Origin: an uncultured bacterium
Lineage (GTDB): Bacteria; Auribacterota; JACPWU01
Assembly (NCBI GenBank): GCA_964640155.1
Contig: CAZXEQ010000006.1
Coordinates: forward strand, 99,013 to 131,012
Direction of reading: 5' to 3'
DNA length: 32,000 nucleotides
Every line of letters begins with the position of its first letter. Position 1 is the stretch's first letter. The notes under the pieces were generated by a model that saw only the letters and a list, made by a program, of their open reading frames with translations, was not told the origin of the DNA and searched no databases. Both the position numbers and the translations under genes were made by a program. Below, in pieces: positions 4,756 to 30,634 of the stretch.

Positions 4756-4757
4756 AA

Positions 4758-7388: not shown

Positions 7389-7402
7389 ACGATGTTACTG
7401 TT

Positions 7403-8887: not shown

Positions 8888-8892
8888 ATTTT

Positions 8893-8981
8893 AGTCACCA
8901 GTCTCCAGTCACCGGTCTCCGGTTCCCAGCTTCCAGTTATTTATTTTTCCTACTGACTGGAGACTGGCAACCCGTGACCGG
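8893..8981. repeat. Heptanucleotide tandem array with an inverted partner in the gltB-gltD spacer
   Basis: Six tandem 7-mers at 8898-8939 (ccagtct ccagtca ccggtct ccggttc ccagctt ccagtta). Inverted units follow at 8954-8981 (tgactgg agactgg caacccg tgaccgg). 8898-8911 is perfectly complementary to 8954-8967 (14 bp). Confidence 0.85.
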
Positions 8982-8990
8982 CAACTTTTT

Positions 8991-13613: not shown

Positions 13614-13638
13614 AATTGTTACCATTGTGTCAAAGCAT

Positions 13639-13719
13639 GTCATTCCCGAAGGTTTGTATCGGGAATCCATTTTTAGCAAAGACAAACATGGATCCCCGAT
13701 TAAAGCACTCGGGGATGAC
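13639..13719. repeat. Pair of REP/MITE-like palindromic units in inverted orientation
   Basis: gtcattcccgaaggtttgtatcgggaatccat (13639-13670) and atggatccccgattaaagcactcggggatgac (13688-13719). Each forms an 8-bp stem (attcccga/tcgggaat, atccccga/tcggggat). Related copies lie at 16722-16759, 27716-27747 and 27764-27795. Confidence 0.85.
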
Positions 13720-13721
13720 CG

Positions 13722-14792: not shown

Positions 14793-15041
14793 ATGGACTC
14801 TGTACTGTTAAATTATCTGTTTGTGGACCCTCAGGTGCATCATGGAAAACCTTGTTTTCGGGGAACACGAATTCCAGTGTACGTAATCCTAGAGCTTCTA
14901 GAAGGTGGCTTAAAATCTGAAGAAATCATTGGACAAGAGTATTATCCCCAATTGACTATGGATCACATACGAGCGGCTCTCCACTTCGCAGCTGAATATG
15001 CTAAAAACCTCGAATACACCCCATTTGAAGAATCCATATAA
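14793..15041 (+). CDS. DUF433-family antitoxin-like protein
   Basis: 82 aa. DPQVHHGKPCFRGTRIPVYVILELLEGGLKSEEII...YPQLTMDHIRAALHFA matches the DUF433 pattern (GKP-x-GTRI ... eeI ... aAl-yA). It lies immediately upstream of a DUF5615-like gene. Confidence 0.75.
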   Translation: MDSVLLNYLFVDPQVHHGKPCFRGTRIPVYVILELLEGGLKSEEIIGQEYYPQLTMDHIRAALHFAAEYAKNLEYTPFEESI

Positions 15042-15043
15042 AT

Positions 15044-15391
15044 ATGGTTCACATGAGATTTCTTATTGATGAAGATGTTCCCGTTAAGCTTCTAAAAACT
15101 CTATCAAAATTAGGCCACGATGTGATACGAGTGGAACCTTCAACGAAAGATCCTGATGTTGCCAAATTAGCCAGAGAAGAAAAACGGATTCTCATCACAC
15201 TGGATAAGGACTTCAAAAATACAGTGCTTTATTCCCCAAAAGAATTCAATATTGTCTATATCCAAATTCATCCACCCTATGCAGATCGGCTTATAGAGGC
15301 ATTCCAAAAACTTCTCGATCAGACCAACAGTGAAGCGTTTACAGGACTTATCATCCTCGGAGAAAAAGGCCATTTGAGAATTGTGAAATAA
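15044..15391 (+). CDS. DUF5615-family PIN-like toxin candidate
   Basis: 115 aa. MRFLIDEDVPVKLLKTLSKLGHDVIRV...AREEKRILITLDKDF matches the DUF5615 N-terminal acidic and DxDF layout. An alternative start at 15053 (MRFLIDE) is at least as plausible. Confidence 0.75.
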   Translation: MVHMRFLIDEDVPVKLLKTLSKLGHDVIRVEPSTKDPDVAKLAREEKRILITLDKDFKNTVLYSPKEFNIVYIQIHPPYADRLIEAFQKLLDQTNSEAFTGLIILGEKGHLRIVK

Positions 15392-15418: not shown

Positions 15419-16087
15419 TCATGCATAAGTTGACGTAATATCATGAATAAGTTTTGGAATATAGGTCTCCATCCACTGACTTTCTTTTCGAGTCAAGACT
15501 TCCTTTGTCCCCCGACCAGAAGTAAGCTGTAAACATCGTTGAAGCTGAACAATGAGTTCCTTCACCTCCAAACTTTTGGCGAGATATTCCAAGGCCAATT
15601 TAAATTCTCCTGGATAAGTTTGATGAAGAAGACAAAGATCATAAAGATCGGTAGGCTCAATACGATCCACAATGCAAGAGAGCTTTTCAAGAACCATGTC
15701 TTTCTCGCACAAAATAGGACATCGCAATTGAAGATCGTAAAGCAATGTCGTAGGATGCCAAATCTTTCCAATATCCACTTTGATTTCTTTTCTCTTTGGA
15801 TAACTGACAAAGATTTGGCAAAAATGTTCCCCTCGTCGAGTGATACGACAGCTTATTTTTTCTTTCTTACATTTACTGACAACTTCCAGCATAGCCTTAT
15901 AGCTTGAAATGTCCTCTCGAGAAGACAGAACATCCACATCTCTGCTCAAACGAGACACTTTCGGAAGTCGCAAAGTTAACCAAGTTCCACCCGCTAAAGC
16001 ATAGTTTTCCTTGATCAAGGGACAAGCCAAGATCCAAGCAGCCAATGCGAGAATATCTTCTTTTGAAGGAAGATTAGGAATGCTCAT
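15419..16087 (-). CDS. Nucleotidyltransferase AbiEii/AbiGii-family toxin (type IV TA-like)
   Basis: 222 aa. YALAGGTWLTLRLPKVSRLSRDVDV resembles the GGTAL...R-S-D-D NTase core of AbiEii (DUF1814). It overlaps the upstream HTH gene by 14 nt. Confidence 0.65.
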   Translation of the reverse strand: MSIPNLPSKEDILALAAWILACPLIKENYALAGGTWLTLRLPKVSRLSRDVDVLSSREDISSYKAMLEVVSKCKKEKISCRITRRGEHFCQIFVSYPKRKEIKVDIGKIWHPTTLLYDLQLRCPILCEKDMVLEKLSCIVDRIEPTDLYDLCLLHQTYPGEFKLALEYLAKSLEVKELIVQLQRCLQLTSGRGTKEVLTRKESQWMETYIPKLIHDITSTYA

Positions 16088-16472
16088 AAAGACCTTGAAT
16101 AAGGTGTTTTCTCACAATGCGTTCAAGACGGGTTCTTCCATCACGAATATAACGGTTCACAACAGAACGTTGAATCATTTTGGGAATCAAATCAGGGGCT
16201 CGATTCAAAAGAATGTGCAGAACTTCGTCTTCATGAGGACGTTTTCTCTCACGCCAGAAAACAGAAGGGAAAGCGTGCCGCGCAGGCCTCCCAACTTTAT
16301 AATGCTGTCTGGCCCGACGGAATTTCTCAAGTTCCGATTTGGGAATAAACCAGATTTTCCCCTTACGTGTCACATGACTTAACCGTCCCTGCCGACAGTA
16401 ACAAGCCATCCGTTCCTTGGAAATACCTAACTGTAATGCCGCTTCTGTGGCCGTTAAAAATTCTGTTTCCAT
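16074..16472 (-). CDS. Excisionase/MerR-like HTH protein, putative cognate antitoxin/regulator of the AbiEii-like gene
   Basis: 132 aa. LTATEAALQLGISKERMACYCRQGRLSHVTRKGKIWFIPKSELEKF is an HTH_17/excisionase-type DNA-binding motif. It is translationally coupled to the NTase gene. Confidence 0.6.
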   Translation of the reverse strand: METEFLTATEAALQLGISKERMACYCRQGRLSHVTRKGKIWFIPKSELEKFRRARQHYKVGRPARHAFPSVFWRERKRPHEDEVLHILLNRAPDLIPKMIQRSVVNRYIRDGRTRLERIVRKHLIQGLYEHS

Positions 16473-16759: not shown

Positions 16760-16822
16760 AGAAGTTTATGCCTGAGCGGTAAAAGCGATTCAGTGTTTCT
16801 CGAGGCTGCCTGCTTAGTCTTA

Positions 16823-16975
16823 TTACGCCATCATCTGAGTATATTCCAGAGAACGTCTGTCATTTCCTATATCGTGTGGGGCTTGAGAAGCAGGAGGTAA
16901 AAGATATTTTTCCAATGCTTTCTTCAGATTCTCTTGAGAACATTCCTTTTTCCTTCAATTTTTAGTGTGGATAAG
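16823..16975 (-). pseudogene. Frameshifted remnant copy of the 3' end of the giant ORF
   Basis: The minus-strand translation of 16823-16933 is ENLKKALEKYLLPPASQAPHDIGNDRRSLEYTQMMA-stop. The giant ORF ends EDLKKVLEKYLLPPASQGQHEMGNQRHAQEYAEMMA-stop, giving 24/36 identical by hand alignment. A 31-nt identical DNA core lies at 16882-16912 and 17575-17605. Upstream similarity (LKIEGKRNV against LKGENI) is in a different frame, and an in-frame stop intervenes. Confidence 0.7.
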
Positions 16976-17005
16976 CTATACTTAAGAATAGGAAGGAGAT
17001 CAGTA

Positions 17006-17221
17006 ATGCGTAAGAATAAATTTTTAGTTGTCATTGAAAAGGATGAAGATAATATGCTCGTTGCAACTGTCCCCGCTTTAAAAGGTTGCCATACACAAGC
17101 CAAAAACCTTCCTATCTTACTTGAACGCATTAAAGAAGCCATCCAACTTTGTCTTGAAGTTGAACGTCCTAAAGTTGTACCTCTTGAATTCGTCGGACTC
17201 CAAGAGGTTGAAGTCAACTGA
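17006..17221 (+). CDS. hicB: HicB-family antitoxin
   Basis: KFLVVIEKDEDNMLVATVPALKGCHTQAKNLPILLERIKEAIQLCLE is the HicB/UPF0150 fold signature. RBS ggaaggag lies 7 nt upstream of the ATG at 17006, and the track's 16934 start is unlikely. The stop overlaps the hicA start (ATGA-type, 17219-17223). Confidence 0.85.
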   Translation: MRKNKFLVVIEKDEDNMLVATVPALKGCHTQAKNLPILLERIKEAIQLCLEVERPKVVPLEFVGLQEVEVN

Positions 17222-17445
17222 TGCACAGGCTGACGCCTCTCAAACCCGCTGAAATCATTCGCATATTGAAACGTCACAGTTTCACCCCCATTCGCCAAAA
17301 AGGAAGCCACATCTACTTTCGACACATGGACGGTCGCTCCACTGTTGTTCCCTTGCATAAGGGGGAAGACATCGGCAGAGGACTCTTGCGCAGTATATTG
17401 CGGGACATCGAGCTTTCCTGGGAAGAATTCCTTTCCAAAAAATAA
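17221..17445 (+). CDS. hicA: HicA-family mRNA interferase toxin
   Basis: 74 aa. LKPAEIIRILKRHSFTPIRQKGSHIYFRHMDGRSTVVPLHKGEDIGRGLLRSILRDI is a canonical HicA/YcfA sequence pattern. Confidence 0.9.
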   Translation: MHRLTPLKPAEIIRILKRHSFTPIRQKGSHIYFRHMDGRSTVVPLHKGEDIGRGLLRSILRDIELSWEEFLSKK

Positions 17446-17515
17446 ACACGGTCAATCTCAGAAAAGCGGACTGGCTGGAAACAAGCGGAGATTAATTTTA
17501 AGAAGCAGTGACTCT

Positions 17516-20500
17516 TTACGCCATCATCTCAGCATATTCTTGAGCATGTCGTTGGTTTCCCATCTCATGCTGGCCTTGAGAAGCAGGAGGTAAAAGATAT
17601 TTTTCTAATACTTTCTTGAGATCCTCTTGACTCCTAATATTTTCTCCCTTTAAATTAATAAGGACTGAATTCCAATAACTGAATCTGGTAATCATTTGAC
17701 AGATTAATTGTCTCTGATCGGTTGTAACAGGAACAGGGGTATTGGGAATTACTGATCCAGATGTTGTCATCTCTTGAAATATTTTTACTTCTCCATTCGA
17801 CATGTTAAGCTCAATACTTTCAGACTCATCATCTAGCTTTGACCAAATAATTTGTGCCAATGAAGCAATCGTTCGATCTTGTAAATTTTTCTGAATACCT
17901 TTAATTTCAAAATGAGCCTTTCGAACACGCTCAGCCTCTTCCACATCTTCTAATGCTTGTAATCTTTCAGCAAGAACTTCGGCTACTGCTTCTACCCAAT
18001 AGTGATTAAGCATTCCAATATCATGCCCATTCATCACCATACGGCGAGGTCTTCCTTCTGTCTCTCTAGAAGCAGCCTCTACGGTTTCAGCTAATTGTGT
18101 TACATCCAATTTTTTAATGTTCAAAAGTTGAATTGCTAAGGCTTTTGCAAGAGCTTTATTTAATTCTTCTAATTCTAAGGCAGTTACCTCTGCAGCTTTA
18201 GCCACTTGTTGAGTGGTTCTTGGATCTTTTTTATATCCATTATTTTTTCTCCATCGATGTCGCTCCACTTCTATTCTCAAAAGAATATTCAAAAGCTCTG
18301 GTCTTTCTTTAGCTAAATATTCTAATGTGTCTCGTCCTATGTATATACTTGGCAGTAGAATTGATTCTGTATTTCGTTCCATTGCCTTGCCCTGATATCC
18401 CATGTGAGCAAAGCTGATTCCATCCAGAAGCTCCATGGACGTATGTCCATGATTCCTTACTTTTGTTTCAGATAGAGCGCTAGTCCCCGAAGAGGAATCC
18501 ATGGAGGTGATTCCATGGATTTCCTCGTAGTGGGATTCATTTTTCTTAGAATCTCCTAAAGAAACAAAAGCTTGATCGCCCAATGCAAGAAGTCGCATAT
18601 TTTCTAAAGCCTTCTTCACTGTACGATCTAAGTCTCGATAAGCATCTGTCATGGTGTAATGTTTTAAAGCTTGATCTAAAGAGGACGTTTCTTCTCCCTT
18701 TTTAGCTAGCTCTCCTAATTTATTAAACATCACACTCACTGTTTTTCCCACTACTTGAGTTTCTCTTGTCGCTTTAACTTTAGTCAGAGTTTCACTCAAA
18801 GTTTTTCCTACTGTTTGATCACTGATAACGCCTTGAGAAAAATTATCATCATCAAGAGAAAGTGGTGTTCTTCGAGCCTTAAGCAAAGCCAGCCTCTTTC
18901 TAATAGTCACGACTTTGCTTTCTTTTCCAGCAAGGGTATTAAACATCCCATTAAAGCCTGGGGCTAAAATTTCGCTCAAAAAATCATCTGCAACCGTTGG
19001 AATTGCAGCGACCACCTCTTTCAATCTTGAAACAGCATTTTCTGGGGTTGTATCCGGTGAGTCAAGCCAGTCCGTTCTAATTTCTCTAACTAAGGTTTTA
19101 AATTCATCCGCCTCAGCAGAACTAGATATTTGAAAGCTAGTTTCAAGATGCCTTATCACTAGTATAACTTTTGGCACATTAGCGAAAGTTACATTCTCAC
19201 TTTCAAACCAATTCAATGCTGTTTCAAAAACAAATCTTCTTCTATTTTCATTCCCTGCATAATCTGACAATTCCATTATATGGACTAATATATAAGAAAT
19301 ATTTTCACCTACTACCTTTGTATTCTCAATCCATAGAGAAGCTAAACTAAAAAAGTTTGAAATTTCCCCAACAACCCTATTCTCTAATTCTTTTTCTGAA
19401 TCACCTTGCTTATGCATATTTATCATTATGTCATTAAGAGCTCTAAGCCTTTTTTTAAATTTCTCGCTAGAATAGAGCGCCACCTCCAATGCTATTACAA
19501 CGGTATCCGTATTCAGCTTTCCACTTTGAACCCACTTTAAAAGTGTTTTTAAAGTTTCTATACTTTCACGATTAGTAAACCTTTTCAGATCTGTGATTGA
19601 AGTTAACAATTTTTGAATTTTTTTAGAGTTTGCTTCTGTTATAAGATTTCTTTGCCTCATCTCAGAAAGTAATTTTTCAACCAAAGCATTTTTGAGAACA
19701 AGATTTACAGGATATCGTTCTTGAACTTCATCTTCTGTAGCTTCTCCATTAGTCTCATTGGCCATCACAATATGTCCAATCTCATGTTCCCAAAATTCTC
19801 TCTTGGCTTCTCGTGAAAGACTTCGAATGAATTGTACTTGTACTGGTGAAAGATAAATTTGGCGCAATTGATGATTGAAAGCTTCTCCACCTCGACCTGG
19901 ATGAGCAACAAGAAAACCATCAAATTGGCTGAGGCTTGAAATTTCATAAACACTTACATTATTCGCTTGAATGAACCCATCAGGATCCAAATCTTTAAGC
20001 TCCTCAGATGTTATAGCTCTTTGAACCTCACTAATAAAAGCTTCACGAATTGTCGTATTAACAGCCTCATGTTGTACTGCTGACAATTCTTCACCAGTAA
20101 TTGTAACGGCGCCAGCAGTATTTATAGGCTGTGTACCTTTTCTATTTAAATAACTTTCATAATCAATTGGGCTAAGCTGTTTAAGCAATGCCCGTAGAGG
20201 AGGCATACGCTTGTTCCAATCAAGAGCTAAAATTCTGACTATTTCTTTTTTTGTTGTTTCCAGAGTTTTTGAGTCTTTGCCTTCAAGAGCCTTCATTATA
20301 TAGTACAAACATGAAAAAACTGTACTATCGGAATTGGTTATCTTTCTTAGTTCTTCTATATATTCCCCACATGTCTCAATCTCCAATTTTCTTCTTCCTT
20401 CTCCATCAGTATTCGAGAAAAGACGAAGCAAATCAAAAAAGCCCTTTTTAAAAAAGATTAATACATCCTCTCGATCCATCTTTTGAACAATATCTGTCAT

Positions 20501-23500
20501 TAACAGGAGAATTGCCTGTCGATCTTCTGGCGAAAGGTTTAAACTGTTTAAAGATTTCCTCCATGATCGAATGTCTCTCCAATAAAGACCAGAAGAGCCC
20601 CATTTCTCTATCATAGCGAATAATAATTGTTCATATTCTCCATATTCTTTTGCATTTTGAATTTCTTTGGATATAAAGGATTCATCAGATTCTACGTCAT
20701 CTCGAATGGGTATAAATCCTAAAACACATCGACGAAGCTCTCTCGTTAATTCCATTTTTGTTTCATCTTCACAATATTCTGGTATAGCACTTAACAAACG
20801 TGGTTCAATCAAATCAAGGATTCTAAATGAAAATGGATAATCACTTTCTTCTAAATTTTCTAGAATCACTTGTCGCATCACCTGTCGAACTTGACTCAAG
20901 GGCAAATTCCCTTTTGTACTTTCTTGAATAACTGCCAAGCGTGTCAAGATTCCAAAGACCAAACGATCAGAAAACTCCATTTCCCAATAGCAAGGTTTTT
21001 CTGGCTTGTTTACTCTGTCTAATGTTTCTTGGAGGACTTGCCATTGCTGATGATTTAATAAATCGCGATCCATTTGTTGAGGTGTTGTATCAAGGCGGTT
21101 GGTGCGTCTAAGAATACCCGTATTAACTTGAGCACCTCGCCTAAAAGGTATAAAAATATGGTTTGAAAATGCCATTCCTACTGTTCCTCTGCTGCGCATA
21201 AAAAATTGAAGACCTACCCATCTCCATCCGATTCTCCAAATGCGAGCTGCATTTCTATCATCTGGGTCAGACAAAATCATTTTTCCAGACGGATCCATCA
21301 TAATATTAACTCTAAATCTACCAAATTGATCTGCATCTCTCGAGCAAGCTTGATAAAGACGATAAAACTCATCAGAAAGTAGCAACTCTACATTTTCTTC
21401 TATAATTTGATTCATCTCATTGGAAGGAGCTAAAAGCCTTTCATGACTTGCTTGAGCCAATATGGTTATTTCATCAGTTAATCTGCTACTTCTAGGAATT
21501 GACGAATTTCCAATCCCAAACCTAGTGTTTAAAAGCCATTCTTCCCTCTGCTGAGGAGTCCCTTGAAACAATTTCTTCAACTCTCTCATGGAGGGCCCAT
21601 CAAGTCCCATGTGTATATCTGATCGCTCCACAGCCACATGAAACAGAAATTTTCTTAATTCTGAAGGATTCTCAAGAAGTTCAAGATTAAGAAAAATTTG
21701 ATTTCGCTCAACAGAATAGTGGGCTCTTTGCCCTTTAATAAAAATGATCTTAGTGTTTTCTAGATGAAATTCTATTTCTAAGTCCTTGATAGCATCATCA
21801 AGCACTTTTAAATGTGCTGGAGAAATTTGAATTTTTTGTTCTTGCACTTTAATGGGCCCAACTTTACGTATATTACCTTGGGTATCACTAAGCTGCGTGT
21901 TATAGTAAAGATCTATTTGGGCCAATTCTCTCGAAGGTTTACCGCGCTTCTCCACTTTTGTTACGATCCCTACACATGCAAATTCTCCATTCACCAAAGC
22001 ATCGCGTATTCCACCGTCATCACTGAGCAAATGATCATAATCAGCTTGGATGACCCCCTTCTGCAATTTGGATCCCGTCAATGTCACATAACGATTGGAG
22101 GCAATATGCATAACAAGACCTGATAAGAAAATAGCCCAGGGAATCAAACTAGCTGAAAAAATAAGAGGAGCAACAAGACAAGCTACAATACCAATAGTAG
22201 ATATAATCGAAGGAATTAATATTTTCTCAAACAATGTTCTCTTTCTTCCTTCTAGTGGTGCATGATCCTGAAAAGCATGAAGTGCGACAAAAAGAATACG
22301 AGCTGCTACATAAGCCCATGGACCTAGAAGAAAAGTTAACATTAATAACCCTTCTTCAATCACAGGAACAATAAAATCTTCTTTTGTATCTTGACTGATA
22401 GGCTTCATCAGTAACACATTCAATGGAGAAACCAGTGCATCTGTTATTTTGTAAACAGGAATCAAAACACCTTTGCCTGCCTCCACAGACTTAACAGGCT
22501 CTGCCGATCTTGTCTCATCAGATTTAATCTCTACTTCACCTTCCCGTTCTCCACCTTTCTGCATCACGCCGCCTTCCATTGCATCAAAAGCCAGTGGACC
22601 ACTGACAGGACGTGTCAGCGTTGGTAAATTTCGGCCGATAGGATCTGTGCTTCTAAAACCCCTATTAGGAGAGTCTGAACGACCGAGAATACAAGTACTT
22701 ACACCCGTATAAAATCCGGCAACCTGCTCTGCATACGCACATGAAAATGTTAGAGAAACACCATTCCATATACCAACTGCAGCACGAGCAGTGACTTCAT
22801 GTTGATTTGGGAAAACCGTAAAAAGAGGTTCATTGGGAGGTGTGGCATATCGATACGCTGCGCCGATCAAAACAGGAAGATCTGATGGCACCCATGTAAT
22901 ACTTCCTCCATAAATAGATGATTCGGGTATTCCACCACTTGGTGGACGATACACATAAATTCTCTTTCCTGCATATCCCCATGCCGAAAGGCCCCAAGTT
23001 GAAGTTAATCCAACTACCACTCTCCAATCTAATGTTTCATAAGGGATATCCACAAGCGAAACCCTCATTCCTGACCAAACACGAACAGGGGCTGATTCTG
23101 GCAATGCGGCCCTTAAAGCAGCAACATTAAAATGAAAATTTGTATATAATCCTGACAACACAAACCTATCTGTCGGAATATCTGATCTAGGAGCTGAAAG
23201 AGAACTATAAGGGTATATAACCCCTGCTCTACCTCCAAAGTCACTTGTAGGTAAACCAACTATTCTTCCTCCTAATCTTAGTGCAGCTGCCGTATGAGGT
23301 GATTCATATGTCATATTTGCTTGAATATCTGCTCCAGGTGCAAAATAACCGCCTGGGGTTAAACTTCCTAACAATCTTAGATCACTGGCTATTGAGAGAC
23401 GATCTGAGGGACGATCTATGAGATTTCCCCAGAAAGAAGCTCCTAAATTGACTACAGCCCAAGATAAGGTGCGAATATTTCCTCGATGTCGATACGGAAT

Positions 23501-26500
23501 ATTTTGCCAGGTCAGCCCTGCATAAATAGGCATATGTCCATTAAATAATCCGTCCCATATTCTGACATTCGCTGTTGCTTCACGTAAATTAACTTGTGGG
23601 TCGACAGGCCGCGGCCCAATAAAAGTTCTTGTTAGTGGATCAATATCGGGTGCCTCATTTGGAAAAGAAAGAGAACCTGAAAAGCGATAAGTAAAGCGCC
23701 TTTCTTGAGCTGGTGTCAGTGTGGGCGTTATTGTTGATGTTGCTGATGCTTCAGATTCCGAAGCTGGTGGAGTTAATCTTCCTACTGGCAAAGAAAACCT
23801 ACCTGACCCTATAGGTGGTAAATCTGAAATTTGGGTTTGTGATACAGTCGTTTCTTGAACAGATTGTAGGGTCTCTTCTTCACTTGTTGTTGGCATTTCT
23901 ACCGGTTGAAGTCTTTCTGCAGCAGGAGCCGTAACTGTTGGAGGAACGGGCTGCGCTTGAGCAATCAAAGGCGCACTTAAAGCAGTTGCAACAGCAATAG
24001 CCAGGGCAGCAACATTAGATTTTATAGAAGATCTTTGAATAGCAGAAGGACGGGCATTTTTGCGTGGTTCTAAATTAACATCTTCTTTAATAACCTCTCC
24101 TTTACCTTTTTGCATTCGACTTCGATCTTGTCTTATTCCTGCATCTCGTGTTACACCCTGTGGAGTTTGTCTAAGGATGACCGTTGGATCCTCTGAACCC
24201 AAAGCTCTCTGAAAACGTTCGATATCTTCTGGTCGATCGAACCAAGGTATCAAAATACGTACAGGAATAGAACTGCCCCGTAAGCGATTCGCAAACTCTC
24301 CTGCAGCTTCTTCTTGTGCTGTCACAACTTCTGTAGAATAATGCATAGGTACAGCAACTACCGGTCTGATCACCGCTGCTGCTTCAGCAGCCTGCTGAGC
24401 ATCCATTGTAAATCCATGACCTCCAACGGGCAAAAGTGCTATATCCAGGTTATCATTTGAAAGATCACGCATTTCCGGAATAAAGTCTGTGTCTCCTGCA
24501 TGATAAAGCCTTCTTCCATCTGGAGTTTCAATCACATATCCTACCCAGTTATTTTCACGAGGATGAGTATTAGCAATAGGGTCAGGGTTCGTAGTATAGG
24601 CTGGCACTGCTTTAATCTTTATTCCCTCAATTTCGAGATGATCTCCAGGCCTTACCACATGCACGACATTCGGTGCTCCCGCCGCTCTCAAACGATCTGC
24701 TACATCCTGCGGTGCCACAAAAATAGTGTTTGGTCTAGAAATTAATGGAAGATATTGTCGAGGATTGAAATGATCATAATGTGAGTGCGTGATGAAAATA
24801 ATATCAGCAGGATGAGAACTTTCGCTATCGGACAACCAATAGGGATCAATATAAACTGTTTTATCTCCCACTTGAAAACGAAAACTTGATTCCCCATGCC
24901 AGAGCAAGTGCTTCACCAGTTCGTTCAACTCTTCCGGCGTCCGAGGTCTTCTTGAAGAAAGTCGAATGACGTCTGGAGCAGCATCACGCATATGTGCAAA
25001 TGCATTAGCAGCAGTCGGAGGAGCCCGCAATTGGGGTGGTGGTGTATTCGGACTTCCCATAAACATAAGAGATAGAGATATGCAAGCAGCAGCAATTGCA
25101 AAAATAGCAACAAGACAGCCTATTGACCCTCTATTTGCAAAGAAAACCTTTGAATCTTTTTTCGCTGTAGTTGCAGGAGAAAGTTTTTCCTTAACTAGAG
25201 AATGAAGCGCTTCGGCATGAGCTAAAGCATAAACTCGCTTTGGATCTTTTTCATCAGGAAACTTTTGAGCAATTTCCTTTTTCGCTTGATCATACGCTTC
25301 AATAAAACTTCTTACGACCTCAGGACTCATGGCCTGAACTTGCTCTTTAAACCTTCTAGACACAAACTCATCCTCAAATCCTGTCTCAGCCAATGCAGCA
25401 AGGGTGTGATAAATGTTGTTGGGATTATCTTTTGGAAGAGATGCGTCAAGCGGCAAAATTAGCATTTCATAGATTTCATGGAAAGCACCAATGGCATTGC
25501 CGGATGTGACAAAAACATGCAAAGTACCACTATCAATGTAAGAACCAGCCCGAATGGGCAACCCTTGCTCATCTCGAATGATTTCACTTTCTGGAATAGT
25601 ATGAAATTCTATTCTTTGTGCAGGTAGTGGTCGCTCACTTTGTCGACTAAGCTCAGCTAGGACTTCTTGTACATTTTCTCCACGCATCAGCCTTTGCACG
25701 AGAACAACATCTCTTTCAAAATCCGGAAACGCTGCTTTAAATTGTGGTGTCTGCGCTTGCTTGCCAAGGACCAAGCTTTGAGCAAGGCTCGTTGCATTTT
25801 CCATTACAGGAAACTTCTCAATTCCCTTTTCCTTTACTTTAGCTTCAAACTCTATTTTCTTCATTTTAGAGCCAATGGGTTTGGCGGTGGCAGACTTTGA
25901 TTGAATATTCTTGGGTTTTAATACCATAGCTCCAACAACAAATTTCGAACCCTGTGATCCAGTGGAGGTCCCCACCGGAACTCTCTCCCATTCCCAAAAG
26001 GTTTTTCCATCAATCCAGGGACGTACCTGATAATCAAATTTTTTCTCAACTTCTCTTTCTAATATATCTGTACCAAGCATCACCATGGGATTACCCTGTA
26101 AGATCTGGCCAGTCCAGTATCTTTGCATCCTAATTTCTGCAAGTGTATCTGAAAGATAAACTCTTCCTTGAGGCTGAACCCATCTTGCGAGTTGTTGAAT
26201 ATGGCGCGAAGGAAGCTCTGTTGCGAGCCGATTAAGAGCAGCTAAAAAGGAATGGTTATTTAAAATATTAGGACCAAACTTTTTTGAAAATAAATTGTGA
26301 CTGTATTGATAAATAAAAGAAGCCAACTGTGTCATTACAAGGGATGAAACCACATAAGAAGCTTGATAAGAACTCAAATCTATATTACGGATTTCAAGAG
26401 ATTGAATTAATTTTATTAACTGTGCTACAGCATATTCTGGCAAAGCAGAAGTTTTTACAATTTCTTCCACACGAATTGAAAAATCAGCCAAAACACCACT

Positions 26501-29017
26501 TAAATCCTCTACTCTGACAACAAATTTTTGACTTAAAGGGGAGCGACCTTTTTCTACTAAATATTGATCTAATTCTCGTAGAGTTGTTCGAACACCTTCT
26601 TCATCTATATCTACTACCACAATTCTTTCAAATTGATTGGCGAGTTTTTCTAAACCTTCAGGGGTATACTCCATACCATTTCCAAGCCCTAATAAAAGAG
26701 CTGTCCCAGAAAGACCCTGAGCTCCTTCTAGAATAAGATCGCGACTTCTTTGAATATGTCCTTGATATTCGGCGGCATAACGAACCAACCATTCCCTAAG
26801 CCCTCTATTTTGTTTCTGAAATTCAGCGATGATACCTTCCGTAGGTTTTGGTTGTTTCTTCACCCACGCCTTAGCCAGTACCACAAGCCCAGGTTGATTT
26901 TCGCCATAGCGTTTGATCAGAGCTTCTGTGATCTCTGCAGCATCACCTGTTGTTTCTCTTAACTCCTCAAGTTCGGAAAAAAATTGAGTAACGATGGTGT
27001 CAGGATGTGCTTTTTTGAGTGATTCAATGAGATTTGTTACTTGCTCTAAACTTAATTTCTCTAATGCCCCTGCCCATTGATCCAGTGCATCTTTGATGTT
27101 CCCTTGTACATTCATCCAAATTTGTACAAGTAAGTCTGCATCTGTCTGTTCATATCGACCTGCTGCAAATCTCTTTAAGATACCCCCATACAACACCGCT
27201 GGGGTAAGCGTCCATCTCCCATCTTCTGTTTTTTCATGTGCAGCTAGTTTCTTTTGAGAAAATTCTGTTTGCTCAAAATCATACGGGCCTTGCATACCTT
27301 TTTCATAAATACTTTCATCCACTTTGCCCTGCATGTTAGGGATTACAACAGCGTAAGATATTCCCTTCTCGTCTAAGATTCTTTCAATACCTTCGGTGTG
27401 AAAGCCACCTGTTACTAAAACTGTAGTTCGTATCTCGTAATTCGTATTTCGTAAAAATACTTGTTCTTCTATACTTCTTGCTTCCTGTCTCCTGCTTCGT
27501 GCTTCTATTTGCTTTAATGCATTTTCCGCCATAACTTGATCCCGAGCTAAAGCTAGATCGTAAAAATGAAGGGATTCGTTGAGGAGGGATGCTAAACTAG
27601 ATGTCATTGCGAGTCCCGATGTTTTTAATTGGGACGAAGCAATCTGACTCAAAGCATCATTCAATTGGATCGCCACGTCGGCCCTCGGCCTCCTCGCGAT
27701 GACATTATCTTTATATGGATCCCCGACAGAAACACTCGGGGATGACAAACCCTCAAATTTCCTGTCATTCCCGAAAGCTTGTATCGGGAATCCATTTTTG
27801 AGTCGTTCATTCAGTTCCAAAATAAAATTTTTAATATTTATTTCTTTAACCTTTTCCAATCCTTTTCTCGTCGCTTTCAGCGCTATCAAATCCTTAATCA
27901 ATCCCCACTCTCTTACCATACGTTCTTCTTGAATTACGTTGTGGGCTTTTGAAAGCTCTAGCATCAAAGTATTGATCTTTTGCTCTAGCTCTTCATAGAT
28001 AGATTCTGATTTAAGATCTTCTTGATGCAGCTGAAGCTTGTAGTAATGAGAAAGTCCTGGATAGTTTTCTTCTAAGGATAATCCATTTTTTTCATAAGCC
28101 TCTTTCAAATGAGTCAAATATTCCAATATTCCCATTCGACCTAATCGATATTCTAAACTCCATTTCACCATTTCTTTTAATTCCTCATTTTTGAGACGAT
28201 GGCTTAATTCATCTAAAAGCTTCTTTAAGTCTGATTGAATTGTTTTGCTTTGTATGGCTTTAGCTGTTTTTAGGATTTCAAGCATTTCTTTTAAGTGGCC
28301 ATCCAGCTTCTGTCCATTCTTTTGTAATAAAACATCTAATTGTATTAATGCTTCGTCTAATTTCAGCTCGCCTTCTTTAAGTTGATTTTGAAGGTTTAAA
28401 AGCTCTTTCATCTCGTGAATGTAAGTCTTTTCGATGATGTTTTTGATTTGTTCATCAATTTTGTTTATTTCAGAAGAAAGTTCTTTGGCAAGTCTGCGTA
28501 CTTTAAGAAAGGCTTGTAGATTTTCTATGTAAAGCTTGCTCTCTTCTATTCCATATAGATCCAGTGAGTTCTGAAGCCCTGAACGCAATGCCGCGTATTC
28601 TGCACCAGTAAGATAACCCTCTTTTAGAAATTGCAAGCCCACTTTGCCCCGTACTTTATCCTCTGGAAAAGCCTTCAAAAGTTCTAAATCAAATTCTCCT
28701 TCTGCTCCTTCCATAAAGACATTTTTAAGGCCCAGCTCTTTTTGAAATACTTCAAGGGTCTTAGCAATGTTGATTTGGGCTTCTTCTTGGCAATGTAAAT
28801 CACGAATGAGAATAAGGAGAGAATCCTTATTTTTACCTTCTTTGATTTTGGAAAGGGTGACATCCGATAGTTTCAATTGTTTTAGTTGATCTAAAACTGA
28901 GAGGTTTTTAAGTGTAGATGATGATGAAGCCGCTGAAGAAAGAACCTCTGCCATCGATTGATGGTCTGGGAAAATACAGTTCGCAAAGAATATAAATATT
29001 AAAAGGATTCGCAACAT
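17516..29017 (-). CDS. Giant (3,833 aa) multidomain, multi-TM protein of unknown function
   Basis: Uninterrupted 11.5-kb ORF, ATG at 29017, TAA at 17516-17518. Domain-level motifs are listed as separate sub-features. I recognise no overall family. Confidence 0.85.
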   Translation of the reverse strand: MLRILLIFIFFANCIFPDHQSMAEVLSSAASSSSTLKNLSVLDQLKQLKLSDVTLSKIKEGKNKDSLLILIRDLHCQEEAQINIAKTLEVFQKELGLKNVFMEGAEGEFDLELLKAFPEDKVRGKVGLQFLKEGYLTGAEYAALRSGLQNSLDLYGIEESKLYIENLQAFLKVRRLAKELSSEINKIDEQIKNIIEKTYIHEMKELLNLQNQLKEGELKLDEALIQLDVLLQKNGQKLDGHLKEMLEILKTAKAIQSKTIQSDLKKLLDELSHRLKNEELKEMVKWSLEYRLGRMGILEYLTHLKEAYEKNGLSLEENYPGLSHYYKLQLHQEDLKSESIYEELEQKINTLMLELSKAHNVIQEERMVREWGLIKDLIALKATRKGLEKVKEINIKNFILELNERLKNGFPIQAFGNDRKFEGLSSPSVSVGDPYKDNVIARRPRADVAIQLNDALSQIASSQLKTSGLAMTSSLASLLNESLHFYDLALARDQVMAENALKQIEARSRRQEARSIEEQVFLRNTNYEIRTTVLVTGGFHTEGIERILDEKGISYAVVIPNMQGKVDESIYEKGMQGPYDFEQTEFSQKKLAAHEKTEDGRWTLTPAVLYGGILKRFAAGRYEQTDADLLVQIWMNVQGNIKDALDQWAGALEKLSLEQVTNLIESLKKAHPDTIVTQFFSELEELRETTGDAAEITEALIKRYGENQPGLVVLAKAWVKKQPKPTEGIIAEFQKQNRGLREWLVRYAAEYQGHIQRSRDLILEGAQGLSGTALLLGLGNGMEYTPEGLEKLANQFERIVVVDIDEEGVRTTLRELDQYLVEKGRSPLSQKFVVRVEDLSGVLADFSIRVEEIVKTSALPEYAVAQLIKLIQSLEIRNIDLSSYQASYVVSSLVMTQLASFIYQYSHNLFSKKFGPNILNNHSFLAALNRLATELPSRHIQQLARWVQPQGRVYLSDTLAEIRMQRYWTGQILQGNPMVMLGTDILEREVEKKFDYQVRPWIDGKTFWEWERVPVGTSTGSQGSKFVVGAMVLKPKNIQSKSATAKPIGSKMKKIEFEAKVKEKGIEKFPVMENATSLAQSLVLGKQAQTPQFKAAFPDFERDVVLVQRLMRGENVQEVLAELSRQSERPLPAQRIEFHTIPESEIIRDEQGLPIRAGSYIDSGTLHVFVTSGNAIGAFHEIYEMLILPLDASLPKDNPNNIYHTLAALAETGFEDEFVSRRFKEQVQAMSPEVVRSFIEAYDQAKKEIAQKFPDEKDPKRVYALAHAEALHSLVKEKLSPATTAKKDSKVFFANRGSIGCLVAIFAIAAACISLSLMFMGSPNTPPPQLRAPPTAANAFAHMRDAAPDVIRLSSRRPRTPEELNELVKHLLWHGESSFRFQVGDKTVYIDPYWLSDSESSHPADIIFITHSHYDHFNPRQYLPLISRPNTIFVAPQDVADRLRAAGAPNVVHVVRPGDHLEIEGIKIKAVPAYTTNPDPIANTHPRENNWVGYVIETPDGRRLYHAGDTDFIPEMRDLSNDNLDIALLPVGGHGFTMDAQQAAEAAAVIRPVVAVPMHYSTEVVTAQEEAAGEFANRLRGSSIPVRILIPWFDRPEDIERFQRALGSEDPTVILRQTPQGVTRDAGIRQDRSRMQKGKGEVIKEDVNLEPRKNARPSAIQRSSIKSNVAALAIAVATALSAPLIAQAQPVPPTVTAPAAERLQPVEMPTTSEEETLQSVQETTVSQTQISDLPPIGSGRFSLPVGRLTPPASESEASATSTITPTLTPAQERRFTYRFSGSLSFPNEAPDIDPLTRTFIGPRPVDPQVNLREATANVRIWDGLFNGHMPIYAGLTWQNIPYRHRGNIRTLSWAVVNLGASFWGNLIDRPSDRLSIASDLRLLGSLTPGGYFAPGADIQANMTYESPHTAAALRLGGRIVGLPTSDFGGRAGVIYPYSSLSAPRSDIPTDRFVLSGLYTNFHFNVAALRAALPESAPVRVWSGMRVSLVDIPYETLDWRVVVGLTSTWGLSAWGYAGKRIYVYRPPSGGIPESSIYGGSITWVPSDLPVLIGAAYRYATPPNEPLFTVFPNQHEVTARAAVGIWNGVSLTFSCAYAEQVAGFYTGVSTCILGRSDSPNRGFRSTDPIGRNLPTLTRPVSGPLAFDAMEGGVMQKGGEREGEVEIKSDETRSAEPVKSVEAGKGVLIPVYKITDALVSPLNVLLMKPISQDTKEDFIVPVIEEGLLMLTFLLGPWAYVAARILFVALHAFQDHAPLEGRKRTLFEKILIPSIISTIGIVACLVAPLIFSASLIPWAIFLSGLVMHIASNRYVTLTGSKLQKGVIQADYDHLLSDDGGIRDALVNGEFACVGIVTKVEKRGKPSRELAQIDLYYNTQLSDTQGNIRKVGPIKVQEQKIQISPAHLKVLDDAIKDLEIEFHLENTKIIFIKGQRAHYSVERNQIFLNLELLENPSELRKFLFHVAVERSDIHMGLDGPSMRELKKLFQGTPQQREEWLLNTRFGIGNSSIPRSSRLTDEITILAQASHERLLAPSNEMNQIIEENVELLLSDEFYRLYQACSRDADQFGRFRVNIMMDPSGKMILSDPDDRNAARIWRIGWRWVGLQFFMRSRGTVGMAFSNHIFIPFRRGAQVNTGILRRTNRLDTTPQQMDRDLLNHQQWQVLQETLDRVNKPEKPCYWEMEFSDRLVFGILTRLAVIQESTKGNLPLSQVRQVMRQVILENLEESDYPFSFRILDLIEPRLLSAIPEYCEDETKMELTRELRRCVLGFIPIRDDVESDESFISKEIQNAKEYGEYEQLLFAMIEKWGSSGLYWRDIRSWRKSLNSLNLSPEDRQAILLLMTDIVQKMDREDVLIFFKKGFFDLLRLFSNTDGEGRRKLEIETCGEYIEELRKITNSDSTVFSCLYYIMKALEGKDSKTLETTKKEIVRILALDWNKRMPPLRALLKQLSPIDYESYLNRKGTQPINTAGAVTITGEELSAVQHEAVNTTIREAFISEVQRAITSEELKDLDPDGFIQANNVSVYEISSLSQFDGFLVAHPGRGGEAFNHQLRQIYLSPVQVQFIRSLSREAKREFWEHEIGHIVMANETNGEATEDEVQERYPVNLVLKNALVEKLLSEMRQRNLITEANSKKIQKLLTSITDLKRFTNRESIETLKTLLKWVQSGKLNTDTVVIALEVALYSSEKFKKRLRALNDIMINMHKQGDSEKELENRVVGEISNFFSLASLWIENTKVVGENISYILVHIMELSDYAGNENRRRFVFETALNWFESENVTFANVPKVILVIRHLETSFQISSSAEADEFKTLVREIRTDWLDSPDTTPENAVSRLKEVVAAIPTVADDFLSEILAPGFNGMFNTLAGKESKVVTIRKRLALLKARRTPLSLDDDNFSQGVISDQTVGKTLSETLTKVKATRETQVVGKTVSVMFNKLGELAKKGEETSSLDQALKHYTMTDAYRDLDRTVKKALENMRLLALGDQAFVSLGDSKKNESHYEEIHGITSMDSSSGTSALSETKVRNHGHTSMELLDGISFAHMGYQGKAMERNTESILLPSIYIGRDTLEYLAKERPELLNILLRIEVERHRWRKNNGYKKDPRTTQQVAKAAEVTALELEELNKALAKALAIQLLNIKKLDVTQLAETVEAASRETEGRPRRMVMNGHDIGMLNHYWVEAVAEVLAERLQALEDVEEAERVRKAHFEIKGIQKNLQDRTIASLAQIIWSKLDDESESIELNMSNGEVKIFQEMTTSGSVIPNTPVPVTTDQRQLICQMITRFSYWNSVLINLKGENIRSQEDLKKVLEKYLLPPASQGQHEMGNQRHAQEYAEMMA
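19772..19786 (-). other. Giant ORF: HExxH zinc-metallopeptidase motif
   Basis: REFWEHEIGHIVMANE. The HEIGH codons are atgtccaatctcatg on the plus strand. The context is GGEAFNHQLRQIYLSPVQVQFIRSLSREAKREFWEHEIGH. Confidence 0.55.
22080..22400 (-). other. Giant ORF: CPBP (CAAX protease / bacteriocin-processing, Abi) type intramembrane protease signature
   Basis: VIEEGLLMLTF has the EE of motif 1 at 22352-22357, but no Arg at +5. LFVALHAF is FxxxH, 26 residues later. LVMHIASN is HxxxN, about 57 residues later (22094-22114). All three lie within hydrophobic helices. The spacing matches the CPBP family. Confidence 0.5.
22700..23700 (-). other. Giant ORF: beta-strand-rich, outer-membrane-barrel-like region
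   Basis: Repeated amphipathic, aromatic-ended segments: FTYRFSGSLSF, RTLSWAVVNLGASFW, ADIQANMTYE, AAALRLGGRIVGL, FVLSGLYTNFHFNV, VRVWSGMRVSLV, DWRVVVGLTSTWGLSAWGYAGKRIYVY, VLIGAAYRYA, GVSLTFSCAYAE. A Ser/Thr/Pro-rich linker precedes the region. Confidence 0.45.
23949..24115 (-). other. Giant ORF: internal Met plus Sec-type signal-peptide-like segment
   Basis: MQKGKGEVIKEDVNLEPRKNARPSAIQRSSIKSNVAALAIAVATALSAPLIAQA-QP has a basic n-region, a hydrophobic core and an AxA (AQA) cleavage-type motif. The Met codon is at 24113-24115, in frame. Confidence 0.55.
24330..24895 (-). other. Giant ORF: metallo-beta-lactamase-fold hydrolase domain (UPF0173/Lactamase_B_2-like)
   Basis: VYIDPYW...ADIIFITHSHYDHF (the HxHxDH motif lies at about 24770-24790), then YHAGDTDF and LLPVGGHGFTMDAQQAAEAAAVIRPVVAVPMHY. 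Confidence 0.85.
25050..25130 (-). other. Giant ORF: transmembrane segment
   Basis: GSIGCLVAIFAIAAACISLSLMFMGSP is an uninterrupted hydrophobic stretch followed by a Pro-rich linker. Confidence 0.7.
26140..26750 (-). other. Giant ORF: class I SAM-dependent methyltransferase fold
   Basis: Motif I ALLLGLGNG (about 26674-26700). The acidic end of beta-2 is IVVVDID (about 26603-26623), and beta-3 is RVEDLSG. Motif IV-like ASYVVSSLVMTQL, and post-IV LARWVQPQGRVYLSD (compare LKPGG-x-l-x-sD). Confidence 0.65.
27428..27504. repeat. Two heptanucleotide tandem tracts inside the giant ORF
   Basis: 27428-27455 reads tcgtatc tcgtaat tcgtatt tcgtaaa. 27477-27504 reads cttgctt cctgtct cctgctt cgtgctt. They are translated as ...EARSRRQEARS...RNTNYEIRTT... 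Confidence 0.8.
27603..27795. repeat. Four consecutive palindromic repeat units inside the giant ORF, read through in frame
   Basis: The units are 27603-27644 gtcattgcgag...gacgaagcaatc, 27669-27704 gatcgccacgtcggccctcggcctcctcgcgatgac, 27716-27747 atggatccccgacagaaacactcggggatgac and 27764-27795 gtcattcccgaaagcttgtatcgggaatccat. The last two match the intergenic units at 13639-13719. Confidence 0.85.
28943..29017 (-). other. Giant ORF: N-terminal hydrophobic leader (signal peptide or signal anchor)
   Basis: MLRILLIFIFFANCIFPDHQSMAEV has a basic residue followed by a hydrophobic run. FANC is only loosely lipobox-like. Confidence 0.6.
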
Positions 29018-29285
29018 ATTCTCTTTTCTTTTTTGATGATTAGCTTACAGAACCTACAAGCAAAAAGTAGTATACCATAAAAAGCTCAAAACTCCAAATC
29101 TAGAGATAATATAATTTTATAATATACTCTTAGAGAATATATTATAAATAAAACAAAACTTATATTCCAATGAATATACCAATGCTAGGATAACCGATAG
29201 ACTCTTCATTAGATATTTTGACTTCATTTCCACGAGAAACCAGAGTATCATAGCTTCCAGAAGCCAAATAGAAAGAGAACTCCAA

Positions 29286-29564
29286 ATGAACTCCACCCTG
29301 CTTAAGGGACTATTAGAAGAACGAATTGTTTCCCTAGGTTCTAAAGATCTATCAAGATTTCCATTTCCCATCAAAGGGATTGTGAGAATATTAAGCAAAA
29401 AGGGAGACACGGTGGCCATTCTTTTCAGCAAAGAAGCGTTGGAAGAATTCGAAGAAGAACTGGATGCTACAGATCCCTCATTTCTCGCTTCACTCGAAGA
29501 TTCTCGCAAGTCAGGTCTGACCTCAGCTAAAGAACTCAAGAGGAAAATGGGTCTTAAGAAATGA
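29286..29564 (+). CDS. Phd/YefM-like antitoxin candidate
   Basis: 92 aa. GIVRILSKKGDTVAILFSKEALEEFEEELDATDPSFLASLEDSRKSG resembles Phd/YefM-type antitoxins. The stop overlaps the RelE-like start (ATGA at 29561-29564). Confidence 0.55.
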   Translation: MNSTLLKGLLEERIVSLGSKDLSRFPFPIKGIVRILSKKGDTVAILFSKEALEEFEEELDATDPSFLASLEDSRKSGLTSAKELKRKMGLKK

Positions 29565-29812
29565 CTTATGAGTTCACCAAACATGCTGAAAAGGAATTCC
29601 TCAAACTTCCGCTCAACATACAAGTGCGCGTTCTTAAAAAGATTGAATCTTTTCTTCGTACAAGCAATCCTCTTTCCTTTGCCAAACCCTTGGTTGGAAC
29701 GACTAAAACCTTCAGATTTAAAATCGGAGATTATCGAGCTATTTTCGATTGGCAAAAAGATTACATTCTTATATTGAGAGTTGGGCATCGAAGAGAAATT
29801 TACAAAAAATAA
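29561..29812 (+). CDS. relE: RelE/ParE-superfamily type II toxin (paralog of 475-753)
   Basis: 83 aa. FRFKIGDYRAIFDWQKDYILILRVGHRREIYKK carries the same GDYR...GHRREIY signature. Confidence 0.85.
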   Translation: MTYEFTKHAEKEFLKLPLNIQVRVLKKIESFLRTSNPLSFAKPLVGTTKTFRFKIGDYRAIFDWQKDYILILRVGHRREIYKK

Positions 29813-29905
29813 TTCAAGACGATCTAGATTTGCAATCACCCCCAACACCAGAAAAACAATCGCCCAAACCAGAAGCAAACCCATCAGACCACATTCGAAA
29901 AATTC

Positions 29906-30634
29906 TTATTCTTTCTTCAAAATGGAAGGTTGAGTAGAGATAACAGGAGGTTGATTTTCTGAGAGGACAATAAAACGATATTCGTAAGTATTTAAGATAG
30001 ATGTTTTTTGATAAATACTTATTTGATTATCAACGATGTTTTCATAAGCCGTATGGCCATGAAGCCAAAGCGTAGGAGTCAAATCATCCATTAAATGCCT
30101 AAAACATTGAAAACCTCGATGACATAAATCCGCATCATCATGAATTCCAAAAGGTGGGGCATGAGATACAATCATCAATTTATGTTTTTTTCCTTTAAAC
30201 CAATCCACAAAACGCTGAATACCAAACTTAAGTTCTGAATTTCGGACAATCTTGGCCATGTCATTTTCACTGTATTGAGGCCCTTTTCCATTATACCAAA
30301 GGCATCCTTCAAACCCCATTAACACCCAATCTTTAAAAACAAACAATTGTCCATGAATATCCTGAAGGCTGTGTAAGTCCTGATGATACATGGGAATTTC
30401 AAGAAAGGTATGGGGTTCTTCCTCTGCTTCCTGTTTCCACCCTCTCCTGGGATCATGATTGCCACGCACACACACCACTTCTTTATCTAACCGATGTGAC
30501 AAAAATTCAAGGTAGGATGCGGGTAAATCTCCGCATGAAACAATGAGATCAACTTCCCTTAAATCTTCAGGAGAAGTTTCAATCCAATGAATCAGCCGAG
30601 TGCTCTCTTTATCAGAAACCGCTAAAATTTTCAT
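29906..30634 (-). CDS. Calcineurin-like metallophosphoesterase
   Basis: 242 aa. KILAVSDKES (motif I has Asp but no His), VSCGDL, VRGNHD, IVSHAPPFG and WLHGHTAY. It overlaps the upstream gene by 4 nt. Confidence 0.8.
   Translation of the reverse strand: MKILAVSDKESTRLIHWIETSPEDLREVDLIVSCGDLPASYLEFLSHRLDKEVVCVRGNHDPRRGWKQEAEEEPHTFLEIPMYHQDLHSLQDIHGQLFVFKDWVLMGFEGCLWYNGKGPQYSENDMAKIVRNSELKFGIQRFVDWFKGKKHKLMIVSHAPPFGIHDDADLCHRGFQCFRHLMDDLTPTLWLHGHTAYENIVDNQISIYQKTSILNTYEYRFIVLSENQPPVISTQPSILKKE

Follow-up and report, generated by a model that had tools for sequence, protein, structure and literature searches.

A giant gene of an uncultured bacterium of the phylum Auribacterota was analysed in a stretch of 32,000 nucleotides (GenBank assembly GCA_964640155.1, contig CAZXEQ010000006.1, positions 99,013 to 131,012), which we call the window and to whose first letter all positions refer. 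The gene (17516-29017, minus strand) is a single uninterrupted open reading frame (ORF) of 3,833 amino acids and belongs to a family of proteins of 1,200-7,700 amino acids from metagenome-assembled genomes (MAGs) of the PVC group. Compared with its homologues, a block in the middle of the encoded protein is a discrete module and an insertion. The explanation that we favour, with a probability of about 0.55, is that about 510 codons were inserted in frame in a lineage-specific event, which placed an exported, strand-rich orphan domain into the linker between the MBL domain and the membrane block of this mosaic giant membrane protein.

The insertion was recognised by comparison with two relatives. 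The contig L081 (GCA_041906985.1) is syntenic with the window, and its AbiEii, LysR, gltB and gltD genes show 92-97% nucleotide identity. In place of the window positions 24031-22402, L081 has 114 bp. Its product P0002, which is 67% identical to the window protein over the matched stretches, reads MQKGGGEIIKEDVDVEPRKNARPSVVQRYLDSSASKIDKGVL... at this site and runs straight into the membrane block; the fuller reading of the junction is ...GGMQKGGGEIIKEDVDVEPRKNARPSVVQRYLDSSASKIDKGVLVSTYKL.... The linker occurs once in the L081 protein, which lacks the hydrophobic core and the beta domain. The nearest full-length homologue is P0007, a distant protein of 4,498 amino acids from the auribacterotal Ca. 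Theseobacter exili. Before the membrane block it reads ...NRYLDSSKPAAGKGVL..., where the six residues and their spacing match those of L081, so that the uninterrupted site has the pattern RYLDSS-5 residues-KGVL in both relatives. Since an imprecise deletion would not recreate this shared arrangement, the uninterrupted junction is taken as ancestral. These alignments place the gain in the window lineage, with the insert lying between ...QR-SSIKSN and (A)GKGVL and covering about residues 1669-2181 (22475-24013). A preliminary description of this DNA had bounded the module by two in-frame methionines 517 codons apart, and both were confirmed: the ATG at 24113-24115 is M1635 (MQKGKGEVIKED) and the ATG at 22562-22564 is M2152 (MQKGGEREGEVEIKSD). 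The proposed module boundary at these sites also held, as the relatives read through the site.

The gene and its parts are as follows.

17516-29017, minus strand: host gene, coding for the mosaic membrane protein of 3,833 amino acids
25061-25117, minus strand: hydrophobic helix TM2 (residues 1301-1319), upstream of the MBL domain; mean Kyte-Doolittle hydropathy 2.58, 4 Lys/Arg in the N-terminal flank
24269-24907, minus strand: MBL-fold metal-dependent hydrolase domain (residues 1371-1583), matched by Pfam Lactamase_B_3 and NCBIfam PRK00685
24014-24115, minus strand: linker copy 1, 'X' (residues 1635-1668: MQKGKGEVIKEDVNLEPRKNARPSAIQRSSIKSN), host sequence
23954-24013, minus strand: signal-like core and c-region, start of the insert (residues 1669-1688: VAALAIAVATALSAPLIAQA, then QP), with a hydropathy peak of 1.93
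23696-23953, minus strand: Pro/Thr/Ser/Glu-rich spacer (residues 1689-1774), assigned by composition and its lack of periodicity
22643-23695, minus strand: strand-rich orphan domain, a candidate barrel (residues 1775-2125), assigned by beta-type moment and alternating runs
22565-22642, minus strand: tail of the insert (residues 2126-2151), matched by no relative
22475-22564, minus strand: linker copy 2, 'X-prime' (residues 2152-2181: MQKGGEREGEVEIKSDETRSAEPVKSVEAG), end of the insert, abutting the right junction
22043-22474, minus strand: five-helix membrane block (residues 2182-2325; KGVL...QKGV), from an alignment of 21 blocks and AlphaFold

The N-terminal domain (residues ~50-600), the membrane block and the domain after it are common to the family members. 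The MBL domain was matched by Lactamase_B_3 with E = 8.5e-27 (94.5 bits against a cut-off of 24) and by PRK00685 with 8.9e-33, which is below the PRK00685 cut-off. Its motif THSHYDH is of the HxHxDH type, and the domain belongs to the MBL-fold hydrolases. The helix TM2 is also found in the first ORF of L081.

L081 carries a decayed copy of the giant gene with a frameshift, in which residues ~723-1226 and everything after ~2301 are lost. Over L081 1-5739, which corresponds to the window positions 16760-29978, the gene is present as two frameshifted ORFs of 811 and 647 amino acids. At the protein level, the window protein is 69.5% identical to L081 in the N-terminal domain and 52-53% in the MBL and membrane-block regions. 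The segment with TM2, the MBL domain and the linker (24031-25173, minus strand, against L081 2956-4100) has 66.5% nucleotide and 52% protein identity, compared with 84% nucleotide identity in the N-terminal domain, and is poor in Lys (1.3%) and rich in Arg (9.2%). This divergence and composition suggest a mosaic or recombined middle section.

The module was also described as flanked by a short direct peptide repeat, MQKG-x-GEV-x-IK-x-D. The tetrapeptide MQKG on its own is unremarkable, since the protein has 137 repeated 4-mers where 112 are expected, and when the two copies within the window were compared, a score of 29 was obtained (shuffle p 0.05-0.07). The ancestral-type linker of L081 was then aligned to copy 2. 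This gave a score of 36 with p=0.02 (GG-MQKGG---GEI-IKED...EPRK against GGVMQKGGEREGEVEIKSD...EPVK). Copy 2 was the best non-self match to the ancestral linker across the 3,833 residues, and it ends exactly at the right junction, which had been mapped independently of the repeat comparison. Because of this p value and this position, we regard the repeat as credible at the peptide level, and it is probably a diverged duplication of about 25-30 codons of the host linker. Copy 1 is about 80% identical to the L081 linker (score 129). At the DNA level the repeat did not hold up, as ATGCA(A/G)AAAGGT alone survives.

Neither terminal inverted repeats nor long direct repeats were present at the module, where only short repeats at chance level occurred. 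An insertion of the insertion-sequence or transposable-element type was rejected, as there are no terminal inverted repeats, there is no other open frame that could code for a transposase, and the duplication is seen at the peptide level only. A 14-nt direct repeat with 13 of 14 identical positions (CGATCTTGTCT(T/C)AT) occurs at 24123-24136 and 22505-22518, 1,618 nt apart. One copy lies just outside linker copy 1 and the other inside copy 2, in different reading frames. It is probably a coincidence, as by a rough estimate ~0.3 such pairs are expected by chance in a 2-kb region.

The base composition had been brought forward for a foreign origin of the module. The three spot counts of G+C in 60-nt rows (29, 23 and 16) were exact. 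The raw G+C content is 0.437 in the module, 0.388 in the N-terminal part and 0.372 in the C-terminal part of the gene. The rise is not specific to the module, because the upstream TM2-MBL segment is even higher (0.451); the high-G+C block already starts some 340 codons upstream of the first MQKG. The excess is located in the codon positions 1 and 2 (0.53-0.59 at position 2), whereas the values at position 3 (0.19-0.26) do not exceed those of the remaining gene. At four-fold degenerate sites the G+C content is 0.25 in the module, 0.25 in the C-terminal part and 0.32 in the N-terminal part, and the relative synonymous codon usage (RSCU) of the module correlates with that of the rest of the gene with r = 0.81-0.85. 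The rise in G+C reflects the amino acid composition, which is rich in Ala, Gly, Pro and Arg with 0.3% Lys, and is not a signature of foreign DNA. The compositional argument for a horizontally acquired gene was rejected, since third positions (G+C 0.23), four-fold sites and RSCU are all native; flat values of this kind are what the preliminary description had itself named as speaking against its proposal. Throughout the giant gene, synonymous sites are richer in A+T than in the adjacent genes, with a four-fold-site G+C of 0.25-0.32 compared with 0.40 in gltBD, the RND pump and LysR (1603-14627).

The reading frame across the module was then inspected. Its own frame alone is open, and the other five frames contain 17-41 stop codons. 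As no long ORF is found in these closed frames, a remnant of a gene in another frame or on the other strand was rejected. With 517 open codons, five closed frames and native RSCU and four-fold-site G+C, the insert is a maintained coding sequence.

At the start of the insert, a textbook Sec signal had been reported. The hydrophobic segment at residues 1668-1686 has a Kyte-Doolittle value of 1.93 with 4 Lys/Arg in the 15 residues before the core. The core itself, VAALAIAVATAL, is followed by SAPLIAQA-QP, with Ala at -3 and -1 of a candidate cleavage site between AQA and QP. By rule-based features, the basic n-region, the hydrophobic core and the small residues at -3 and -1 are therefore all present, with a core of Ala, Leu, Val and Ile and a helix-breaking Pro, as in signal peptides for Sec and signal peptidase I. 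What does not agree with such a signal is its location. The core starts at residue 1669 of an unbroken ORF, ~1,668 residues into the chain and not at the N-terminus of a precursor, and the n-region (RKNARPSAIQR...) is the pre-existing host linker, which is also found in L081 without the module. The core is absent from L081 and P0007. New in the insert are thus the hydrophobic core and what follows it, and the n-region is older.

The core is followed by the Ser/Thr/Pro linker of the preliminary description, which was confirmed: residues 1689-1774 consist to 43% of Ser, Thr and Pro (Thr 16%, Pro 15%, Ser 12%, with Glu at 10.5%), contain no Lys, Tyr or Trp and have no periodicity. The residues 1775-2125 have a beta-type hydrophobic moment with z=3.1 against shuffled sequences and no alpha periodicity. 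The N- and C-terminal parts of the protein showed the opposite periodicity, with an alpha z of about 4. Long alternating hydrophobic runs are enriched in the same residues (z=2.2-3.0). The domain contains 10% Gly, 12% aromatic residues, 0.3% Lys, 7.7% Arg and two Cys, and about 16-17 candidate strands were picked by eye. A single-sequence AlphaFold prediction of the module reached a pLDDT (predicted local distance difference test) of 31 and the model was unusable; the low confidence is due to the lack of homologues. Of the barrel-like region of ~330 residues that had been suggested, a strand-rich stretch of about 350 residues stood, and the barrel is unproven, as it was proposed from rule-based features, namely periodicity, runs of strand length, composition and the strands picked by eye.

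Features of outer-membrane proteins (OMPs) were looked for in this domain. No homology to a known family was found in Pfam, NCBIfam and the PDB sequences at E<=1-10, nor among 1.84 billion representative proteins. A C-terminal beta-signal was not seen, as the last candidate strand ends with ...GVSTCILG and about 1,700 residues follow. An outer membrane is present in the host, since the window genes include a TolC-like OEP gene (1.2e-31) and an AcrB-type RND pump. With a diderm host, an outer-membrane destination is possible. The candidate strands are flanked by spacers of ~88 residues before the first and ~70 after the last, which could in principle cross the periplasm.

The orphan status of the module was established by an exhaustive phmmer search with residues 1600-2799 as query against the 1.84 billion representatives. 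All 29 hits were located in the membrane block (~2180-2325) or in the next domain (~2336-2530), and none had its best stretch in the module. When the full protein was compared with these hits by local BLASTP, residues 1663-2149 remained uncovered except for two spill-over extensions. There was no family for the module in Pfam and NCBIfam and no relative among the PDB sequences at E<=10. Scans of metagenome contigs with the module and with the membrane block and a scan of viral contigs gave no relatives, and a genome-contig scan made with gltB for taxonomy showed no homologue of the giant gene among its 80 loci. Word-indexed searches with the module, the beta domain and copy 2 plus the membrane block were empty; they carry little weight because even the host protein and P0002 were not found. 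No paralogue of the module was present in the window, L081 or L082, and an internal repeat was rejected as its origin, since the module has no internal repeats. The module is known from one sequence, in a 90% cluster with one member. Free-standing homologues, for which the preliminary description had suggested a search, were not found in the representatives, the metagenome contigs or the viral contigs.

According to the favoured explanation, the insert would have brought in a signal-like core, for which the host linker provides the n-region, and an extended spacer, about 85 residues long and rich in Pro, Thr and Ser. It would further have brought an all-beta orphan domain of some 350 residues, which is poor in Lys and rich in Gly and aromatic residues, and, as a scar resembling a target duplication, the diverged second copy of the host linker. 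The hydrophobic segment would engage Sec and YidC and start the movement of the spacer and the beta domain to the periplasmic side. The marginal first helix of the membrane block (GVLIPVYKITDALVSPLNVLL) would return the chain to the inner membrane, so that the beta domain would become an extracytoplasmic loop of a polytopic protein. A new crossing from inside to outside requires that this first helix spans the membrane; its mean hydropathy is about 1.4 by our own estimate, which is marginal.

The membrane block that would receive the chain occurs once or twice per protein in about 20 giant proteins and is bracketed by the motifs KGVL and QKGVL. In the alignment of 21 blocks, P36, E39, E40, Y54, R58, F61, H65, P87, H122 and N126 are invariant. 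AlphaFold predicted five helices with a pLDDT of 89.6. The motifs EE, F-x3-H and H-x3-N, which we take to resemble those of CPBP proteases, are invariant and located on separate helices, as in intramembrane proteases of the CPBP/Rce1 type. In contrast to these, the Arg is displaced relative to EExxxR. PF02517 was not detected in any of the 21 blocks, no PDB sequence was hit, and Foldseek against the PDB returned nothing at E<=0.001 (best E=2). A CPBP/Rce1 protease was rejected at the sequence level and at the fold level. The block may represent a hydrolase-like intramembrane domain of an undescribed kind, or a site of processing. As a confidently modelled domain without a counterpart in the PDB, it is an uncharacterised candidate intramembrane enzyme.

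Several observations weigh against the favoured explanation. As L081 is decayed, the absence of the module there is weak evidence when taken alone and could be a deletion, and the polarity of the change is read from the match of RYLDSS..KGVL to a single outgroup, P0007. Copy 1 is much closer to its counterpart in L081 than to copy 2, which is awkward for a simple recent duplication. The topology is also problematic. TM2 and the segment 1668-1686 both have 4 Lys/Arg in their N-terminal flanks and no helix lies between them, so that their orientations do not agree with each other under the positive-inside rule. An extra crossing would also change the parity of the block that follows, unless the first helix of that block can switch between an interfacial and a membrane-spanning state.

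The same data were weighed for a captured OMP gene, the main reading of the preliminary description. In this scenario, a free-standing porin-like gene with its own signal peptide would have been inserted in frame, and its barrel would still be assembled in the outer membrane by the beta-barrel assembly machinery (BAM), with a tether to the inner membrane at one or both of its ends. The insertion is real, the core has its AQA site, and about 350 residues are beta-amphipathic with long alternating runs, 12% aromatic residues and 10% Gly; spacers long enough in principle for the periplasm and the diderm host would fit as well. However, soluble beta sandwiches also have amphipathic strands, and OMPs do not usually have so little Lys (0.3%) or two Cys. 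The n-region is host sequence, the synonymous codon usage is native, and an internal domain cannot have the C-terminal beta-signal, the last strand here ending with ...STCILG. As no free-standing or embedded homologue was found in any of the collections searched, a formerly independent OMP gene was not demonstrated, and we consider this origin unlikely. Published surveys of long PVC-type proteins describe many with a signal peptide and transmembrane helices and make no barrel calls, and among 916 long Omnitrophota proteins there was none (bioRxiv 10.64898/2026.06.07.730766). The bridging of two membranes by one chain has been proposed for PelB (PMC12141448), which is the nearest precedent for a chain that may do so: it combines an uncleaved or N-terminal inner-membrane helix, a long periplasm-spanning segment and a barrel in one chain of a diderm. 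The PelB barrel is C-terminal and has recognisable homologues, whereas the candidate barrel here is internal, is followed by the five-helix block and 1,500 residues, and has neither homologues nor structural support. A barrel in the outer membrane tethered to the inner membrane on both sides, by the signal-like helix with the 88-residue spacer and by the ~70 residues with the five-helix block, or else a cut by signal peptidase at AQA-QP, we regard as quite improbable. Inverse autotransporters (intimin/invasin, type Ve) share the order of signal, linker, beta domain and large C-terminal region. Membership in this class was rejected, since no Pfam inverse-autotransporter barrel was hit and the region downstream consists of hydrophobic helices, the five-helix block, and not of Ig-like passenger repeats.

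A nested or processed product would remove the topological oddity. Here, an internal start at M1635 (or M2152), or a cut at AQA-QP or in the linker, would yield a protein of ~2,150-2,200 amino acids with an (extended) signal peptide at its N-terminus; Met1635 is located 33 residues before the core. The window genes are mostly without a Shine-Dalgarno sequence, so its absence at M1635 is uninformative, and M2152 has GGAAGG 8 nt upstream as well as a weak hairpin with a T-run at 22606-22590. However, similar 4-mers resembling a Shine-Dalgarno sequence precede 7 of the 80 in-frame ATGs, M2152 among them, and promoter-like sites (30, against 28.4 expected) and terminator-like sites (9, against 9.8) are at chance level. 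No stop codon separates any upstream product. Since the MQKG methionine and its linker are present in L081 without the signal core, this Met is part of an inherited linker and not an evolved start. The internal start that had been offered as an alternative thus found no positive evidence, and we hold a nested product to be very unlikely. An inert insert was considered as well, in which the hydrophobic segment does not translocate, or works as a reverse stop-transfer that follows an MBL domain in the periplasm, and the beta stretch stays cytoplasmic or is a passenger of little function. The charge bias of TM2 predicts the MBL domain outside, in which case the next segment would be an out-to-in anchor. 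The module is an orphan with one known sequence, and the giant gene is fast-evolving and mosaic, with the unequal identities to L081 given above. The charges around residues 1668-1686, however, fit an in-to-out orientation, the frame is maintained over 517 codons with all others closed, and the composition, without Lys and rich in Gly and aromatic residues, is organised and not random. We therefore view an inert insert as highly doubtful.

Among known systems, the giant proteins of Omnitrophota and the PVC group (West-Roberts et al. 2023, bioRxiv 10.1101/2023.11.21.568195; 10.64898/2026.06.07.730766) are similar in their very long ORFs, an N-terminal hydrophobic segment, internal transmembrane helices and the accretion of enzyme-type domains. 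They differ in size, with 3,833 amino acids here compared with the roughly 10,000-residue proteins that those surveys stress. The gltB gene nearby shares 77% identity with MAGs of Omnitrophota.

The gene offers a datable case, resolved to its boundaries, of how a giant mosaic protein may grow: a cassette of signal plus domain entered an inter-domain linker, the linker was probably duplicated and basic residues of the host came to serve as the n-region of a putative signal. If the domain is exported, the gene would show that one insertion is enough to alter how a polytopic giant protein is arranged in the membrane. If it is an outer-membrane barrel, an internal barrel with tethers to the inner membrane on either side would be unprecedented, a single-chain staple across the cell envelope, and would bear on how Sec, chaperones and BAM deal with non-terminal barrels. 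If signal peptidase cuts at AQA-QP, the giant precursor would be divided into two halves, one with enzymes that faces the cytoplasm and one that spans the envelope, a polyprotein-style processing by the Sec machinery in a bacterium.

Further observations were made on the other parts of the giant protein. The domain downstream of the membrane block (21428-22012, minus strand, residues ~2336-2530) has the core motif IIFIKGQxAHYSVGRNQIFLD..LL...L..xLxHExxER, which is common to many large proteins. It occurs as tandem repeats in the protein P0006 and has no Pfam family. Several of the large proteins with this domain presumably also contain sugar-phosphate-enzyme-like sequence, judged by eye. Elsewhere in the giant protein, looser versions of the motif seem to be present at residues ~1165, ~3080 (HEIGH) and ~3560. 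In the C-terminal helical region, residues 3155-3205 (19403-19555, minus strand) gave a borderline match to Pfam DnaB_2 (E=6.5e-5, 23 bits against a cut-off of 22), which is probably not meaningful.

The giant gene lies amid a dense set of toxin-antitoxin and abortive-infection-type genes (475-753, 14793-15391, 15419-16472, 16934-17221 and 29286-29812). ParE, a HicB-like antitoxin and AbiEii were confirmed with Pfam, a RelE-like ORF and a small two-gene pair at 14793-15391 were recognised by eye only, and a neighbouring HTH_17 assignment was taken from the syntenic gene of L081. An ORF of 255 amino acids (29117-29884, minus strand) runs antisense to the ParE toxin/antitoxin pair (29286-29812, plus strand) and almost certainly does not represent a real gene; in L081, gene calling joined this antisense sequence to the C-terminus of P0002. 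The ParE/antitoxin cassette is located downstream of the giant gene in L081 and not upstream, where a HicAB pair takes its place.

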